A stretch of 64,000 bases of DNA from Elusimicrobiota bacterium (lineage in GTDB: Bacteria; Elusimicrobiota; Elusimicrobia; UBA1565; UBA9628): contig DAHVNA010000004.1 of the NCBI GenBank assembly GCA_027319565.1, positions 25,522-89,521 on the forward strand. The letters run 5' to 3'. Below the pieces are notes generated by a model, which saw nothing but the letters and a program-made list of their open reading frames with translations, had not been told where the DNA came from and did no database searches. A program made the translations under genes and the position numbers. Of this stretch, positions 32,638 through 38,978 are shown piece by piece. How positions within the stretch are numbered: the first letter of the stretch is position 1; each line of letters starts with the position of its first letter.

Positions 32638-33282
32638 TTATTGTCCATCAACATCCCGCCCATGCCATAGAAGATAGATCGCGGGATAGACGAGGAGTTC
32701 CAGGATAAATGAGGTGAAAAGACCGCCGACCATGGGGGCGGCGATTCGCTTCATGACGTCTGCGCCCGTTCCGGTCGACCACATGGCCGGAAGAAGTCCC
32801 AGAAACGCGCAAGCGACCGTCATCATTTTTGGGCGCAGACGCTTGGCCGCGCCGTCATGAATCGCTTCTTTAAGATCGGCTTGCGTGTTAAGACGTCCGG
32901 CGGCGGCGCGCGCTTGTTTTTCGAGATTGAGATAGAGAAGCATGAAAATGCCCGTTTCGGCGTCAAGCCCTAAAAGAGCGATAAACCCTACCCAGACCGC
33001 GACGGAGAGATGATATCCCAAGAGCCACAACAGCCAAATCGCTCCGACTGCCGAGAACGGCACCGCGACTAAGACGATTCCCGCTTCAATCCAGGAGCCT
33101 GTGTTAAAGTAGAGAAGCAATACGATCAGCAAAAGAGCGAGCGGGCCGATGATGAGGAGCCTTTTCTCGGCTTTTTTCATCTGTTTATACTGTCCGCTCA
33201 ATTCATAACGATAGCCCGAAGGAAAAGTGACCGATTTCGCAATGGCCGCCTTGGCCTTTTGGACGTAACCCCCGATATCGGA
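32638..33282 (-). pseudogene. 645-bp near-identical duplicate of the cusA 3' portion (matches 34269-34910), lacking the 5' part
   Basis: Colinear with the full cusA, mostly synonymous differences; homology ends exactly at the 27-bp repeat. Confidence 0.92.
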
Positions 33283-34069: not shown

Positions 34070-34083
34070 TGATGATCCGCTCA

Positions 34084-34216
34084 CATCACTCCGGCAATCC
34101 CTAAGCCGGAGTCCAGACTCTCAGAAAGCCTACCACTGGCCGCTCCCCAACAGACTTTGGAAGCGGCATTTCCTCGGCTTATGCCTCGGTCAGATTCCGG
34201 CGTTCGCCGGAATGAC
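34084..34216. repeat. Paired REP-like palindromes (actccggc..gccggagt and attccggc-gttc-gccggaatgac) enclosing a ~55-bp hairpin repeat
   Basis: Palindromes at ~34088-34112 and 34194-34213; inner 34137-34194 resembles 37491-37545. Confidence 0.7.
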
Positions 34217-34268
34217 GAACCTGAGCAGTTACTTTTCGCGAACAAAATATTTCCCTTGACTTGCGGTG

Positions 34269-37200
34269 CTAATTCCCAATATCCCGCCCATGCCACAAAA
34301 GATAAATCGCGGGATAGACGAGAAGCTCCAAGATAAATGAGGTGAAAAGTCCGCCGACCATGGGGGCGGCGATTCTTTTCATGACGTCTGCGCCCGTTCC
34401 GGTCGACCACATGGCCGGAAGAAGTCCCAGAAACGCGCAAGCGACCGTCATCATTTTTGGGCGCAGACGCTTGGCCGCGCCGTCATGGATCGCTTCTTTA
34501 AGGTCGGCTTGTGTGTTAAGACGCCCAGCGGCGGCGCGCGCTTTTTTTGCGAGATTGAGATAGAGAAGCATGAAGATGCCGGTTTCGGCATCAAGTCCTA
34601 AAAGAGCGATAAATCCCACCCAAACCGCGACGGAGAGGTGATATCCCAAAATCCACAACAGCCAAATCGCGCCGACGGCCGAGAACGGCACCGCGACTAA
34701 GACGATTCCGGCTTCAATCCAGGAGCCGGTGTTAAAATAAAGAAGCAATACGATCAGAAAAAGAGCGAGCGGGCCGACGACGAGAAGTCTTTTCTCGGCT
34801 TTTTTCATCTGTTTATACTGTCCGCTAAATTCATAACGATAGCCCGAAGGAAAAGTGACCGATTTCGCAATGGCCGCCTTGGCCTTTTGGACGTAACCCC
34901 CGATATCGGAAGTTTTTAAGTCCACATAGACATATCCTGAGAGTTCGCCGTTTTCATCTCGAATCATGTCAGGTCCCTGGCGTATGCGAATTTCAGCGAT
35001 CTCGGCCAATGGAATCTGCTCGTCTTTGGAAACGGGGACCAAAACTTCTCCGATTTTTCTCAAACTGTCTTTAAAGTCCGGGGCATAGCGCACGTTCACC
35101 GGAAAACGATCGCGGCCTTCGATGGTCTTCGTCACGCGCTCGCCTCCTAAGGCGGCGGCGATCATCGAATTTGCGTCATCAACTGAAAGCCCGTATCTCG
35201 CCAAAGCCCGGCGCTTTAAAATGATGTCGGTGTAATAGCCCTGGGCGGTCCTTTCCGCCACGGCGCGCCTAGTTCCAGGCACGGAATTAAGAGCTCCTTC
35301 GATTTCAGCTCCGAGTTTTTGAATCACGGATAAATTCGGGCCGAAAATTTTAATTCCAACGGGCGTTCGCATTCCGGTTGAGAGCATATCGATGCGATTT
35401 TGTATGGGCTGGGTCCAGATATTGGGATAGCCCGGGATCTTAAGCTTCTGATTCATTTGAGAGATCAGCTGCCTCTGACTCAAATGGCATTTCCAGAGTC
35501 CGCCGAGACAAGGCGTTGTCGGCCAAAATTTTCGGGGTTTTAAAACGACGGTCGTTTCCATCATGGACAAGGGTGCGGGATCGGTCGCGGTTTCGGCGCG
35601 GCCAGCCTTGCCGTAAACGGTTTTAACTTCAGGGAAAGATTTGAGGATTTCGTCTTGAATTTGAAGGACCCTCCGGGCTTCCGTTATCGAGACTCCGGGA
35701 AGAGTGGTCGGCATGTAAAGGATGGTTCCCTCGTTGAGCGGAGGCATAAACTCAGATCCCAAGCGCCATAAAAGAGGCAGAGTCAAAAGGAAAAGCGCGG
35801 CGGCCGAGAAAATCGTTCGGCGCGGATTTTCCAAGACCCAGTTGACCACCGGCGAATAAATTTTAAAAAGCCGGCGGCTGATGGGGTGTTTCTCTTCCGG
35901 ATAATAGCGTCCGACTAAAATGGCGTCGGCGGCGCGGTTAAGCCAATGCGGCTTAATATTAAATGAGTCCATTCGCGCAAAAAACATTCGGACTGCGGGG
36001 TCTAGGGTCACGGCTAAGACCGCGGCAAGCGTCATCGCGAAAGTTTTTGAATAGGCGAGAGGCTTAAATAACCGGCCTTCTTGCCCGGTAAGAGCGAAAA
36101 TCGGAAGAAATGCGGCTGCGATAACGAGAAGCGAGAAAAAAACCGAAGGGCCGACTTCCATTAAAGCTTTGAGGCGCACCTCATGAAAATCTCCCTTGCG
36201 TCCCTCTTCTTGCCACTCCTCAAGACGCTTGTAGGCATTTTCGACCTCGACAATCGCGCCGTCAACGAGAATTCCAATTGAGATCGCGATGCCGGAAAGA
36301 GACATGATGTTGGTGGTCAGGCCCAAAGCCGCCATCGGGATAAAAGCCAAAAAAACGGAAACCGGAATTGTCAGAATCGGAACCATGGCCGACGGCGGGT
36401 GCCATAAAAAAAGAAGGATCACGAGACTGACGATGAGCATTTCTTCAAAGAGCGTTTCTTTGAGCGTTCCGACGGCTCGTTTGATAAGACCCGATCGGTC
36501 ATAGACCGGGATGATGCGAACTCCGGGCGGCAAAGAGGGAGAAATCTCTTTTATTTTTTCTTTGACGCGGTTGATCACATTGAGCGCATTTTCTCCGCTG
36601 CGAATGATGACGATTCCGCTGACGGCGTCGCCAAGGCCGTTGAATTCCCCGACGCCTCGCCTTCGAGCGGGTCCCAGGCTGACTGTGGCGATATCTTGAA
36701 CCAAAACAGGCGTTCCCGTTTCAGGGTCTCGTCCGACAGAAGTTTGCTCGATGTCTTTGATTCCTTTGAGATAACCGCGCCCTAAAATCATGAATTCTCT
36801 TCCCGAAAACTCGATCGTGCCGCCGCCCGCTTCGCTGTTGGATTCTGAAACGGCTTTGAGAACCTTGGTCAGCGAAATGTGATAGCTCCAGAGAGCGCTG
36901 GGATTTATTTTGACCTGATACTCTTTTTCATATCCGCCGATGGACGCCACTTCAGAGACGCCAGGAACGGCTTGAAGCTGATAGCGAATGTGCCAGTCTT
37001 GAAGGGCGCGGAGTTGAGATAAATCCAGCGCTTTTGAATCATCCACCAGCACGTACTGATAGACCCAACCAAGACTGGTCGCGTCCGGTCCCATTGCGGT
37101 TTTCACTCCTTTGGGAAGCTCCGGAATGATTTTGGATAGGTACTCTAAAACGCGCGAACGCGCCCAATAGAGGTCGGTTCCGTCCTCAAAAATTACGTAA

Positions 37201-37475
37201 ACTAAAGACACCCCGAATTCATTGATCGCGCGAATCGCCTTAACTTTAGGCGCGCCCAAAAGAGCCGAGACGATCGGATAAGTCACCTGGTCTTCCAATA
37301 CTTCGGGCGATTGATCCCAGTTTGAGGAGACGATTACCTGAGTGTCCGATAAATCCGGTATCGCGTCGAGCGGCATTCTTTTGACCGTGTAAAAGGCGTA
37401 GGCCAAGGCCACGAGAGTCAAAAGAATAACGAGAAATTTATTGCGCGCCGAAAACGAAATGATTTTAGAGATCAT
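34269..37475 (-). CDS. cusA: CusA/CzcA-family heavy-metal RND permease (Cu/Ag type)
   Basis: DAIPDLSDTQVIV, GPDATSLGWVYQY, GRLFKPLA, EFMPPLNEG, TDPAPLSMMET, RLRPKMMT. Confidence 0.97.
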   Translation of the reverse strand: MISKIISFSARNKFLVILLTLVALAYAFYTVKRMPLDAIPDLSDTQVIVSSNWDQSPEVLEDQVTYPIVSALLGAPKVKAIRAINEFGVSLVYVIFEDGTDLYWARSRVLEYLSKIIPELPKGVKTAMGPDATSLGWVYQYVLVDDSKALDLSQLRALQDWHIRYQLQAVPGVSEVASIGGYEKEYQVKINPSALWSYHISLTKVLKAVSESNSEAGGGTIEFSGREFMILGRGYLKGIKDIEQTSVGRDPETGTPVLVQDIATVSLGPARRRGVGEFNGLGDAVSGIVIIRSGENALNVINRVKEKIKEISPSLPPGVRIIPVYDRSGLIKRAVGTLKETLFEEMLIVSLVILLFLWHPPSAMVPILTIPVSVFLAFIPMAALGLTTNIMSLSGIAISIGILVDGAIVEVENAYKRLEEWQEEGRKGDFHEVRLKALMEVGPSVFFSLLVIAAAFLPIFALTGQEGRLFKPLAYSKTFAMTLAAVLAVTLDPAVRMFFARMDSFNIKPHWLNRAADAILVGRYYPEEKHPISRRLFKIYSPVVNWVLENPRRTIFSAAALFLLTLPLLWRLGSEFMPPLNEGTILYMPTTLPGVSITEARRVLQIQDEILKSFPEVKTVYGKAGRAETATDPAPLSMMETTVVLKPRKFWPTTPCLGGLWKCHLSQRQLISQMNQKLKIPGYPNIWTQPIQNRIDMLSTGMRTPVGIKIFGPNLSVIQKLGAEIEGALNSVPGTRRAVAERTAQGYYTDIILKRRALARYGLSVDDANSMIAAALGGERVTKTIEGRDRFPVNVRYAPDFKDSLRKIGEVLVPVSKDEQIPLAEIAEIRIRQGPDMIRDENGELSGYVYVDLKTSDIGGYVQKAKAAIAKSVTFPSGYRYEFSGQYKQMKKAEKRLLVVGPLALFLIVLLLYFNTGSWIEAGIVLVAVPFSAVGAIWLLWILGYHLSVAVWVGFIALLGLDAETGIFMLLYLNLAKKARAAAGRLNTQADLKEAIHDGAAKRLRPKMMTVACAFLGLLPAMWSTGTGADVMKRIAAPMVGGLFTSFILELLVYPAIYLLWHGRDIGN

Positions 37476-37490
37476 AGTTTGATTCCTCTG

Positions 37491-37545
37491 TGGCCGCTCT
37501 CCAACAGACTTGGAAGCGGCACTTCCTCGCCCATGCTCGGTCGGA
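37491..37545. repeat. ~55-bp hairpin repeat; second copy at 34137-34194, so the two copies flank cusA in direct orientation
   Basis: tggccgctctccaacagacttggaagcggcacttcctcg versus tggccgctccccaacagactttggaagcggcatttcctcg. Confidence 0.85.
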
Positions 37546-37573
37546 ACATTCTTGCGGCTTTTGCCGTATCAAA
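37543..37573 (+). promoter_or_regulatory. Putative ECF-sigma promoter for the tRNA-like gene
   Basis: GGAAC (37543-37547) - 17 nt - CGTATCAAA (37565). Confidence 0.4.
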
Positions 37574-37580
37574 GGTGTAG

Positions 37581-37654
37581 GCCTCGCTAGCTCAACTGGA
37601 TAGAGCGCACCGCTGACTACGGGGGAGATTCGGGTTCGAATCCCGAGCGGGGCA
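37581..37654 (+). tRNA. Atypical tRNA-like gene, anticodon GAC (Val) by geometry, Arg-like D loop; A28.G42 mismatch, U37, no encoded CCA
   Basis: Acceptor GCCTCGC/GCGGGGC, D arm GCTC-AACTGGATA-GAGC, anticodon arm CACCG-CTGACTA-CGGGG, T arm TCGGG-TTCGAAT-CCCGA; U8, A14, G18G19 and A15:U48 intact. Confidence 0.75.
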
Positions 37655-37715
37655 TATGCCGGTTTCCGGCGGATAGCGACTTTCCCTCCAAAGTCAGCGG
37701 TCGTTGTCCATCCCC

Positions 37716-37745
37716 TTGACAAACATGCATAAGAGGGCTTACAAT
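37716..37745 (+). promoter_or_regulatory. Sigma70-type promoter for the small RNA
   Basis: TTGACA (37716-37721) - 18 nt - TACAAT (37740-37745). Confidence 0.75.
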
Positions 37746-37751
37746 AAAGCG

Positions 37752-37828
37752 TAGGCGGTGTGCTCCGAGTTAGCGGAGTCTTCCCCGTAGTCAAAGCGGC
37801 GTCCACAAAGGCGCCGCTTTCTTTTTTT
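37752..37828 (+). ncRNA. Putative ~77-nt small RNA antisense to the tRNA-like RNA
   Basis: Bounded by its own promoter and terminator; three segments complementary to 37584-37593, 37603-37613 and 37614-37628. Confidence 0.7.
37793..37828 (+). terminator. Intrinsic terminator
   Basis: aaagcggcgtc-cacaaa-ggcgccgcttt followed by cttttttt. Confidence 0.85.
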
Positions 37829-37850
37829 CCAGGGGTGCGGTTGATTTTTA

Positions 37851-38978
37851 TCACATCTTCATCCCGGGCATGGAGCCCATTGAATCCGAGGGAGCGGCGT
37901 TTTTGGAGTCTTTGCCCGGTTGAGCGAATGATTGGATCGCGGATTGAAATTGAGATTCCGCGTCGATTAAAAAATTAGCCGAAGTCGTTACCGTTTCTCC
38001 GGGACTTAAACCCGATAAAATTTCGTAATAGCCCCCGGCTTTTGTTCCTAACTGGATTGATCTCGGATCAAGAGTCCCGTCTTCCCTAGCCACAAAAACG
38101 TATTGTTTCTCCCCGGTGTTTAAAACCGCGCCTTCCGGCACGCTCAAATGCTCTCCCAGCGGAGATTGAATTGTGACATCCACATAGGTTCCGGGTTTGA
38201 GCAGTCCCAAGGCATCATCCAGCCGGGCTCTGACGCGCGCGGTTCGAGTGGTGGGGTTGATCACTGGATCTATTGAAAGGACATTTGTCGTCCAGACTTT
38301 TCCCGGGAGAGTTTGGGATTTAATCTTCACGGGAATTCCCGGATGAATGAATTGCAGGTCATATTCATAAACATCCGCATAGACCCATACCGCCTGTCCG
38401 CGTTTTCCCACTAAAAGCCCTTGAGCGAGACTCGGATTCTTGACCCAGGCGGAAACCTGAGCGGGAGACAAACCTAAGAGTTTGAGTTTGAAGGCCGATG
38501 CTTTTTCCATGGAGCGCGCCCAATTCGCTTCGGAATTTTGAGAGCTTTTTTTGACTGAGTTCAAGGCTTCAAGGGCTTGGCGGTATTCTTCGATTGCCTC
38601 ATAGAGTTGCGGGTCATAAGCGATGCGGCCGGGAGCGCGGATATTTTTTGTGAGCGCCCGCATTTCGGACTTTCCATAGGTGACGCCGATTAATTGCCGC
38701 CTTTGAGAGGAGATTAAGATGGGGGCTCTCTCGGGCACATTGCTGTTGCCTTTTTTCATTTTCTCCATCGGTCGTAAATTCATGCCGCAGATGGGGCACT
38801 GGCCCGGATGATTTCGAATAATCTGATGGTGCATCGGGCATTGGTAGAGAGTTTTTGGGGCGGCCTTTTTTGAAGAGGCGGCAATCTCAATTGAAGCGTT
38901 GCGGCTTTTGAAGTAAATGCCGGCGATAACGGCGAGGAAAAGAGATATCGCGAAAAAGAATAATTTTTTTTGTTTCAT
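37851..38978 (-). CDS. cusB: CusB-like RND periplasmic adaptor with heavy-metal-binding domain
   Basis: YQCPMH...PGQCPICGM, IDPVINPTTRTARVR, ANFLIDAES, Met-rich tail. Confidence 0.93.
   Translation of the reverse strand: MKQKKLFFFAISLFLAVIAGIYFKSRNASIEIAASSKKAAPKTLYQCPMHHQIIRNHPGQCPICGMNLRPMEKMKKGNSNVPERAPILISSQRRQLIGVTYGKSEMRALTKNIRAPGRIAYDPQLYEAIEEYRQALEALNSVKKSSQNSEANWARSMEKASAFKLKLLGLSPAQVSAWVKNPSLAQGLLVGKRGQAVWVYADVYEYDLQFIHPGIPVKIKSQTLPGKVWTTNVLSIDPVINPTTRTARVRARLDDALGLLKPGTYVDVTIQSPLGEHLSVPEGAVLNTGEKQYVFVAREDGTLDPRSIQLGTKAGGYYEILSGLSPGETVTTSANFLIDAESQFQSAIQSFAQPGKDSKNAAPSDSMGSMPGMKM

Follow-up and report, generated by a model that had tools for sequence, protein, structure and literature searches.

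Self-silenced type I toxin-antitoxin loci, which include hok/Sok besides the two that serve here as points of comparison, are among the described systems closest to the locus of this study. In aapA1/IsoA1 (PMC5416894) and tisB/IstR-1 (PMC8969498; see also PMC11228461), as the available text of these sources describes them, separate promoters serve the silenced RNA and a small antisense RNA, the primary transcript is masked by its own 3' part, and the silenced tisB gene has a stress-type promoter, the stress there being SOS (PMC8969498). In this study, we examine a cassette of about 290 bp in Elusimicrobiota bacterium GCA_027319565.1 (the host; assembly 92% complete), within a window of 64,000 nt of contig DAHVNA010000004.1, that carries in order an extracytoplasmic function (ECF)-type promoter, an extra tRNA, a trailer hairpin, a sigma-70 promoter, an antisense small RNA and a terminator. 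It has the same layout of separate apparent promoters, the one before the tRNA putatively of a stress type, and its primary transcript is predicted to be masked by its own 3' part and to need 3' processing; an antisense RNA with an apparent promoter of its own and complementarity to the tRNA transcript is in itself a type I trait. The parts of the cassette, their pairings and their covariation are evident in the DNA. We propose, with belief and doubt about evenly weighted, that the trailer is a cis mask on the precursor of a potentially harmful tRNA and forms one layer of an exchangeable, type I-like tRNA/antisense cassette.

The cassette also departs from type I loci. Its silenced RNA is a tRNA with no toxin open reading frame (ORF) evident, its antisense RNA is encoded downstream on the same strand and not opposite, and the target is the anticodon arm together with D and acceptor strands rather than a ribosome-binding site. 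Since no toxin ORF is evident, we regard the cassette as working like the two-step control of type I loci and not as a type I locus. The stored inert toxin message described for aapA1 (PMC5416894) resembles the masked intermediate that would be left after 3' removal.

Allo-tRNAs, as described in PMC5389517 and PMC7609411, are extra tRNAs in which identity and anticodon clash, as they appear to do in the cassette tRNAs; they are found near toxin-antitoxin genes, and some kill Escherichia coli by missense suppression. They have 8/4 or 9/3 branches and mostly serine or alanine identity, whereas the cassette tRNAs have 7/5 branches and arginine or U1-A72 bodies, and by its 7/5 fold the cassette tRNA is not an allo-tRNA. 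The tRNA-ProX of Streptomyces and relatives (PMC10404621) is likewise described as a natural sense-codon mistranslator that impairs growth, but it comes with a dedicated ProRSx, whereas the cassette has no synthetase gene and has a cognate antisense RNA. The word "antisense" does not occur in the main text of either allo-tRNA paper, supplements aside, nor do "antisense" and "toxin" in the main text of the tRNA-ProX paper.

The locus is not a member of CreTA: an Rfam scan of the window gave tRNA matches only and no CRISPR family, and the flanks are cusA- and cusB-like genes. CreTA is a type VIII toxin-antitoxin system. As described in PMC8501985, both partners are RNAs and harm comes through tRNA function, as it would in the cassette, but CreT sequesters rare tRNAs by way of a mini-ORF and CreA represses the CreT promoter through Cas proteins. 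In the cassette, the putative toxin is a tRNA to which the antisense RNA would bind directly, and the match is with the tRNA body, not with the promoter. The C4 RNA of phages P1 and P7 and the CI RNA of P4 are tRNA-shaped RNAs with complementary sites nearby, in which the cloverleaf regulates an mRNA; in the cassette, by contrast, a hairpin loop and a small RNA with its own terminator carry the complementary sites, and no ORF follows on that strand. Our literature search, with supplements and most subscription papers outside its scope, found neither a tRNA gene described as being under a dedicated antisense RNA of its own nor a pre-tRNA whose trailer had evolved as a cap for its anticodon arm. 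Look-ups by sequence and by position gave nothing either. The features of the cassette are as follows.

37543..37568, + strand: putative ECF-sigma-type promoter of the tRNA (GGAAC, 17 nt, CGTA)
37581..37654, + strand: extra tRNA, anticodon GAC at 37615-37617 (ARAGORN; Rfam RF00005, 48.8 bits)
37658..37670, + strand: small 5-bp hairpin in the spacer, found only in this one of ten aligned copies
37671..37709, + strand: trailer hairpin, with an 11-bp stem (37671-37681 with 37699-37709) and a 17-nt loop, -23.3 kcal/mol
37681..37701, + strand: split anti-arm element, with 37681-37688 facing tRNA 40-47, a CAA linker, and 37692-37701 facing tRNA 28-37
37716..37745, + strand: sigma-70-type promoter of the antisense RNA (TTGACA, 18 nt, TACAAT; 11 of 12 matches, 0.3 expected)
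37752..37828, + strand: antisense small RNA with putative ends, lying between the sigma-70-type promoter and the terminator
37793..37828, + strand: intrinsic terminator of the antisense RNA, probably also of the read-through transcript (11-bp stem, U tract)

The pairing described in a preliminary description of this DNA is present in this copy at all of its coordinates. Positions 37692-37701 are the exact reverse complement of 37609-37618 in the anticodon arm, a second block at 37681-37688 pairs with 37621-37628 over 8 bp (three of them G.U), and the trailer can fold on itself by pairing 37671-37680 with 37700-37709. A further 6-bp helix proposed for the self-fold, gacttt with aaagtc, exists here but is found in only one of nine scorable arginine-body trailers. 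The trailer pairs with its own anticodon arm at -30.1 kcal/mol, a value matched by 3 of 300 dinucleotide shuffles, and the -23.3 kcal/mol of the trailer folded alone (z -4.6) is reached by none of 200. When 40 host tRNA genes were scored for the longest exact complement of the arm in the next 62 nt, the value was 10 here, 7 in a paralog and at most 6 in the other 38; among 55 canonical tRNAs from the fetched loci it was at most 7.

Homologs were sought by BLAST and by patterns over relatives of the host, all GTDB species and metagenomes. These searches yielded 39 distinct cassettes. They come from about 24 genomes or contigs, nearly all of them relatives of the host, and were classed by tRNA body and anticodon only. 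Some of the patterns required TTGAC downstream, one required the upstream motif, and two strict ones required a base other than A at position 37, and the BLAST-type searches used the whole cassette as query. Left out of the 39 are a broken tRNA remnant in L018 and ARAGORN calls without the GGTTCRA T arm, including a cassette (L213) recovered later. A strict tRNA-only pattern matched 8 places in 185,579 genomes, 4 of them named Elusimicrobia, and the strict pattern matched 4 metagenome contigs; a phylum-wide pattern returned mostly canonical arginine tRNAs and one new cassette. Cassettes with a spacer of at least 40 nt before the antisense promoter were taken as trailer-bearing (24 cassettes) and those with at most 22 nt as trailer-less (15 cassettes). 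Three of the four metagenome contigs (L177, L178 and L180) have a GAC tRNA type with sigma-70-like promoters on both RNAs, another antisense build and no trailer, and may come from another lineage; their cassettes adjoin a gcvT-like gene, so labelled by eye.

Pairing of a trailer with its own arm beats shuffles at the 5% level in 18 of 24 cases, compared with 2 of 55 canonical tRNAs, and cognate pairing is better than the mean of same-class non-cognate pairings in all 23 trailers compared. Ten A20 copies were aligned with MAFFT. Of the cells in this alignment, 85.7% pair, a share that none of 500 shuffles reached; 8 of the 14 pairs vary on both sides, which 2 of 500 shuffles equalled or exceeded, and slid registers pair at no more than 55%. 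Many of the trailer-arm pairs are G.U, which points to selection on the RNA, and the AA of the linker is unchanged in 10 of 10 aligned copies. A second register for the 3' block was rejected, as it covaries less (6 of 14 pairs; 165 of 500 shuffles as high). The order of the element is the same throughout: a complement of the 3' stem strand comes first, then a short linker, and last a stretch complementary to the 5' strand and to part of the loop. In 23 of 24 trailers, the block facing tRNA 27-37 begins 25-31 nt past the discriminator; in this copy it begins at 38, with an extra 13-nt hairpin in between. This fixed distance from the tRNA end argues for action in cis, and the same architecture is found on two different tRNA bodies. 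The cis-acting anti-anticodon element of the preliminary description is thus borne out as one that is conserved, covaries with its own tRNA and keeps its distance from the tRNA end, and we consider a functional cis pairing highly likely.

The way in which the element is presented differs from what had been described. It was said to be held in the hairpin, whereas 22 of 24 homologous trailers display it in the loop, within an enclosing stem of at least 6 bp when the core of the element is held unpaired in scoring. In the best own fold of this copy, 37692-37698 (7 of the 10 nt) lie in the 17-nt loop and 37699-37701 in the stem. Across the family the stems are 7-18 bp long, differ in sequence and usually start about 7 nt past the discriminator; by a rough estimate, 7 single-stranded nt plus a 12-bp stem span about 70 angstroms, the distance from acceptor end to anticodon. 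A kiss between loop and arm, limited to one helix of no more than 8 bp, is worth -5.8 kcal/mol after opening costs in this copy. Such a kiss is below -2 kcal/mol in 18 of 24 trailers, with topology and tethering ignored, and its energy is better than non-cognate in 22 of 23.

The preliminary description had instead taken the precursor for a conformational switch; in the strict form of this idea, the trailer is either folded on itself or fully zipped onto the arm with the acceptor stem open, the two states being mutually exclusive. The zip is indeed the pseudoknot-free optimum in this copy (-56.8 kcal/mol, compared with -50.0 for cloverleaf plus hairpins, a difference of 6.8) and wins in prefix folds once 37702 has been transcribed, and a kiss could mature into a zip. 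However, this preference is helped by a local match of the 3' strand of the stem to the D arm, and trailer pairing with tRNA 1-24 beats shuffles in only 2 of 24 cases. The zip is dominant in just 6 of 24 homologs in pseudoknot-free folds, the alternative 6-bp helix is rare, as noted above, and the acceptor stem also opens with many shuffled trailers in equilibrium folds. A strict switch is therefore unlikely as the general mode of action, and in these models the better fit is a kiss in cis between loop and arm on a precursor with a 3' extension.

The tRNA that would be masked has a mixed identity. It combines an arginine-type body with the valine anticodon GAC, and has A20, C3-G70, A73, U37, an A28.G42 mismatch in the anticodon stem and no encoded CCA. 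Its fold is a normal 7/5 (7-bp acceptor stem, 5-bp T stem, full-length RF00005 alignment). Among 45 host tRNAs called by ARAGORN, the GGAYA D-loop is confined to five arginine tRNAs and the two cassette tRNAs. A20 is described as the main determinant for ArgRS, directing it together with C35 (PMC9976931); the cassette tRNA has A20, C3-G70 and A73 of the arginine elements, without C35, and A35, C36 and A73 of the valine elements, without G3-C70 and U4-A69. Position 37 is U, as against a purine in 33 of 33 distinct canonical short-arm tRNAs scored, and a canonical tRNA-Val(GAC) gene is present on another host contig, which together speak against its being an ordinary tRNA-Val(GAC). An 8-nt anticodon loop and an arginine anticodon in a shifted register were both dropped by eye, as the stem fails to pair. 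GUC and GUU make up about three quarters of the valine codons in long ORFs of the host genome. The 45 calls include tRNA-Arg(GCG) and lack tRNA-Arg(ACG), in an assembly of the completeness given above. A second cassette of the same type in the host, L002 (G000:C43:18470-18705, - strand), lies at a contig end and has compensatory changes in tRNA, trailer and antisense RNA.

Across the family, body and anticodon disagree in several ways. The 23 A20 bodies carry GAC (12), GCU (6), ACC (2), GCC, GGC and AAC, the 15 U1-A72 bodies carry GUC (12) and CUC (3), and there is one further body. The identity swap appears clear for the nine members with A20 and C35 (GCU, ACC and GCC), which should place arginine at serine or glycine codons, and for the 15 U1-A72 members, of which the GUC and CUC types should place asparagine at aspartate or glutamine at glutamate codons; in the present tRNA the signals are mixed. 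The U1-A72 pair is an amidotransferase signal that extends to Asp/Asn, and gatB is present in the host, whereas neither asnS nor glnS was found above the cut-off in the host genome, the only one examined for them. For Glu-tRNA-Gln, the signal is stated in PMC9976931. All 14 members with GAC, AAC or GGC lack a purine A at position 37 and 13 have U or G, a result partly imposed by the search pattern; our guess is that this U/G37 resembles the C35-U/G36 of arginine tRNAs moved by one. A loose A20 pattern matched phage tRNAs with a wide range of anticodons, and the 43 distinct ones that were scored include no such cassette, so that the GGAYA D-loop marks arginine in this host and not everywhere. 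Three viral contigs (L020, L032 and L115) carry phage tRNAs that combine an A20-type D-loop with AAC and U37; behind them lies a terminator-like hairpin, and no antisense RNA is apparent. One cassette with trailer and antisense RNA, L261 (G021:C89), has a CUC anticodon on a C1-G72, A73 body, which we take to be possibly of the proline type.

The cassettes turn over at a fixed site. Between cusB and cusA, five congeners have a cassette of the GUC type, one of the CUC type, an antisense gene that lacks the tRNA, the remnant of a terminator, or nothing. The lone antisense gene, L275 (G003:C96:62255-62374), is of the CUC type and retains promoter and terminator. Swap, loss and a lone antisense gene at one site are as expected of a toxin-antitoxin pair. 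One cassette has its tRNA copy split by an insertion, with trailer and antisense gene intact, and another recurs in tandem with hicAB; of the other neighbours checked, most are ordinary enzymes. The tRNAs of L215 (G004:C34) and L018/L257 (G005:C11:40344) are interrupted just before the T loop, apparently by the same short element. We judge a toxin-antitoxin role of the cassette to be probable.

The promoter before the tRNA bears on how the cassette would be induced. The exact motif stands before 20 of the 24 cassettes with a trailer and 6 of the 15 without one, although some were found through this motif. A stricter version occurs 15 times in the host genome at two adjacent spacings, compared with 0-5 times at each of 14 others, whereas a control with the motif reversed had 9 occurrences at these two spacings and 1-8 at the others. 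In the host, the motif also precedes recA, an ECF-type sigma factor gene, a gene that we take from its domain pair to be ComF-like, two integrase genes and a RhuM-family gene (sites G000:C25:21871, C30:6418, C56:7430, C31:5790, C46:4145 and C31:10227), and in G030 a ComF-like gene as well. It is possible that the motif marks an ECF promoter of a DNA-damage or competence regulon in this lineage.

Such a regulon would also suit a tunable device for mistranslation under stress, in which trailer and antisense RNA set threshold and delay and no addiction is involved. The sharing of the motif with recA, the ComF-like gene and the ECF sigma gene favours this explanation, as does the report that proline-mistranslating tRNAs raised carbenicillin tolerance in E. 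coli (PMC10404621). Also in its favour, blastn gave no match in phages or plasmids, and two strict tRNA patterns matched no viral contigs. Viral sites with a tRNA plus promoter showed no exact complement of at least 9 nt in 95 distinct ones among the matches listed. Nevertheless, the swapping of bodies and anticodons and the empty site fit a selfish or dispensable module better than a single recoding need, and we give the device little credence; the masking role of the trailer would be unchanged under it.

The stage at which a mask could act follows from the transcript. A U tract ends only 2 of 24 trailers, which rules out the trailer as a terminator and makes read-through into the antisense region likely. 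In folds of the full read-through transcript, 37 of 39 cassettes have the arm paired with the antisense copy in cis, and 1 of 24 has it paired with the trailer, so the pairing of trailer and arm proposed in the preliminary description is not supported for that stage; the trailer should matter early in transcription or after 3' removal. The antisense copy starts a median of 41 nt past the tRNA in trailer-less cassettes, compared with 86 nt in trailer-bearing ones, and being nearer may do the early job of the trailer. L191 (G051:C40) has two possible antisense copies after the tRNA, each behind a promoter-like stretch. We lean towards a masking or delaying role of the trailer. Alternatively, the hairpin could serve chiefly as a signal for processing or as a block to exonucleases, an RNase III site being one example, with the loop match secondary or acting in trans. 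The length and position of the stems, the scarcity of U tracts and the presence of RNase III in the host agree with this idea, but a hairpin that is purely a barrier would not require its loop to covary, nor would one that acts in trans require a fixed distance, and we find the idea distinctly unlikely.

Most of the 5' part of the tRNA has a complement in the antisense RNA. Positions 37754-37765 pair with 37603-37614 (12 bp), 37767-37779 with tRNA 1-13 (12 of 13) and 37776-37793 with 37614-37631 (18 bp), so that the segments covered are tRNA 1-13, the 3' strand of the D stem together with the 5' strand of the anticodon stem, and the stretch from the loop up to and including the variable region. 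Within the 200 nt downstream, 37 of 39 cassettes and none of 55 canonical tRNAs have an exact complement of at least 9 nt. Pairing of the antisense RNA with the arm beats shuffles in 30 of 39 cassettes, and pairing with tRNA 1-15 does so in 21 of 39, compared with 2 of 55 controls. Automatic parsing placed a sigma-70-like antisense promoter in 38 of 39 cassettes; in the 39th it was assigned manually, and one assignment was changed.

Layout alone cannot assign the roles, and they could in principle be reversed, with the small RNA as an effector on host tRNAs or mRNAs and the tRNA-shaped RNA as its stress-induced sponge; CreT toxins are described as tRNA-sequestering small RNAs (PMC8501985). However, the best partner of the small RNA among the 45 host tRNAs is its own neighbour (-51.6, compared with -43.5 for the next), which disfavours host tRNAs as targets, no systematic search for mRNA targets having been made. 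In addition, the small RNA persists without the tRNA at the orthologous site of one congener, unexpected for a toxic RNA, and the cassette tRNAs keep intact cloverleaves with coherent identity swaps, all of which makes a reversal very improbable. That the matches are functionless remnants of local inverted duplication or template switching is barely credible: inverted repeats arise readily near hairpin-forming sequences, but copying predicts perfect complements, and the invariant AA linker, G.U pairs, double-sided changes and fixed spacing on two tRNA bodies largely refute it.

Taken as a masked toxin, the cassette would work as follows. Under stress, an ECF sigma factor would make the tRNA, while the sigma-70 promoter would constantly supply the antisense RNA. 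With no terminator in between, the first transcript would read through and be masked by its own antisense copy. After trimming or cleavage of the 3' part, the strong stem of the trailer would define a stable intermediate, in which the single strand and stem would span from acceptor end to anticodon arm and the loop would pair with the arm, over about 7 bp and then perhaps through the second block. This capped intermediate would be unusable. Removal of the hairpin and addition of CCA would give the mature tRNA, on which free antisense RNA would unfold most of the 5' two thirds. If induction exceeded the antisense RNA, or the cassette were lost, mature tRNA would build up and growth would slow, most likely through mistranslation; natural mistranslating tRNAs are described as toxic in E. 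coli (PMC5389517; PMC10404621). In this copy, arginine would be placed at the GUC/GUU valine codons, the least certain step.

Several observations weigh against this account. The tRNA retains the valine determinants A35, C36 and A73 and lacks C35 of arginine, and may simply carry valine. No RNase Z was found above the cut-off in the 92% complete genome, which bears on the release step. The sources of the cassettes are mostly related, not independent. Unconstrained folds of the trailers are often a few kcal/mol lower, with the halves of the element partly self-paired, although not in this copy. The pairing fails to beat shuffles in 6 of 24 trailers, the cognate tRNA is top-ranked for only 11 of 24, and a 40th cassette with a 62-nt spacer has no such element apparent. 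Finally, 15 of 39 cassettes, including all nine A20 and C35 members, the clearest candidates for arginine mistranslation, have no trailer, which makes it an optional layer; the likeness to self-silenced type I toxin mRNAs drawn in the preliminary description is supported for the layout of the locus.

The fullest reading, which we put forward tentatively and short of an even chance, is of an RNA-only toxin-antitoxin family. Its toxin would be an identity-swapped tRNA (arginine at serine, glycine, alanine or valine codons; asparagine at aspartate; glutamine at glutamate by way of GatCAB), induced by an ECF factor together with recA, comF and prophage integrases. As part of the same reading, three RNA locks would hold it: the cis antisense copy; the strut-like trailer, which would cap the arm of the intermediate and store an inert toxin; and the free antisense RNA, which would unzip the mature tRNA. 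If this is true, mistranslation serves here as an RNA toxin under regulation, and the two-step control known from type I toxin mRNAs has arisen anew around a tRNA. This could also explain how hosts survive the persistence of allo-tRNAs and other mismatched tRNAs, and it suggests a compact on/off control for suppressor tRNAs. The sequence signature of tRNA, promoter and complement of the tRNA's own arm would serve for finding more.

The cassette lies between two genes of the opposite strand, beside part of a repeat.

34269..37475, - strand: cusA-like RND efflux gene (PF00873)
37492..37543, no strand assigned: piece of a dispersed palindromic repeat at the left edge of the cassette, with 12 other matches in the host genome and many in five congeners
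37851..38978, - strand: cusB-like membrane-fusion gene (PF16576, PF19335)

No ORF of at least 50 codons starts on the + strand within 37480-37750, peptides below 50 aa being outside this screen; the ORFs listed across the cassette are 37465-37854 (- strand) and 37760-37978 (+ strand). RNA contigs from three runs of the same study include none on this stretch and are no evidence either way on expression. Elsewhere in the window, the 3' end of the cusA-like gene and its flank are apparently duplicated about 1.6 kb downstream (32638-33201 and 34081-34440).
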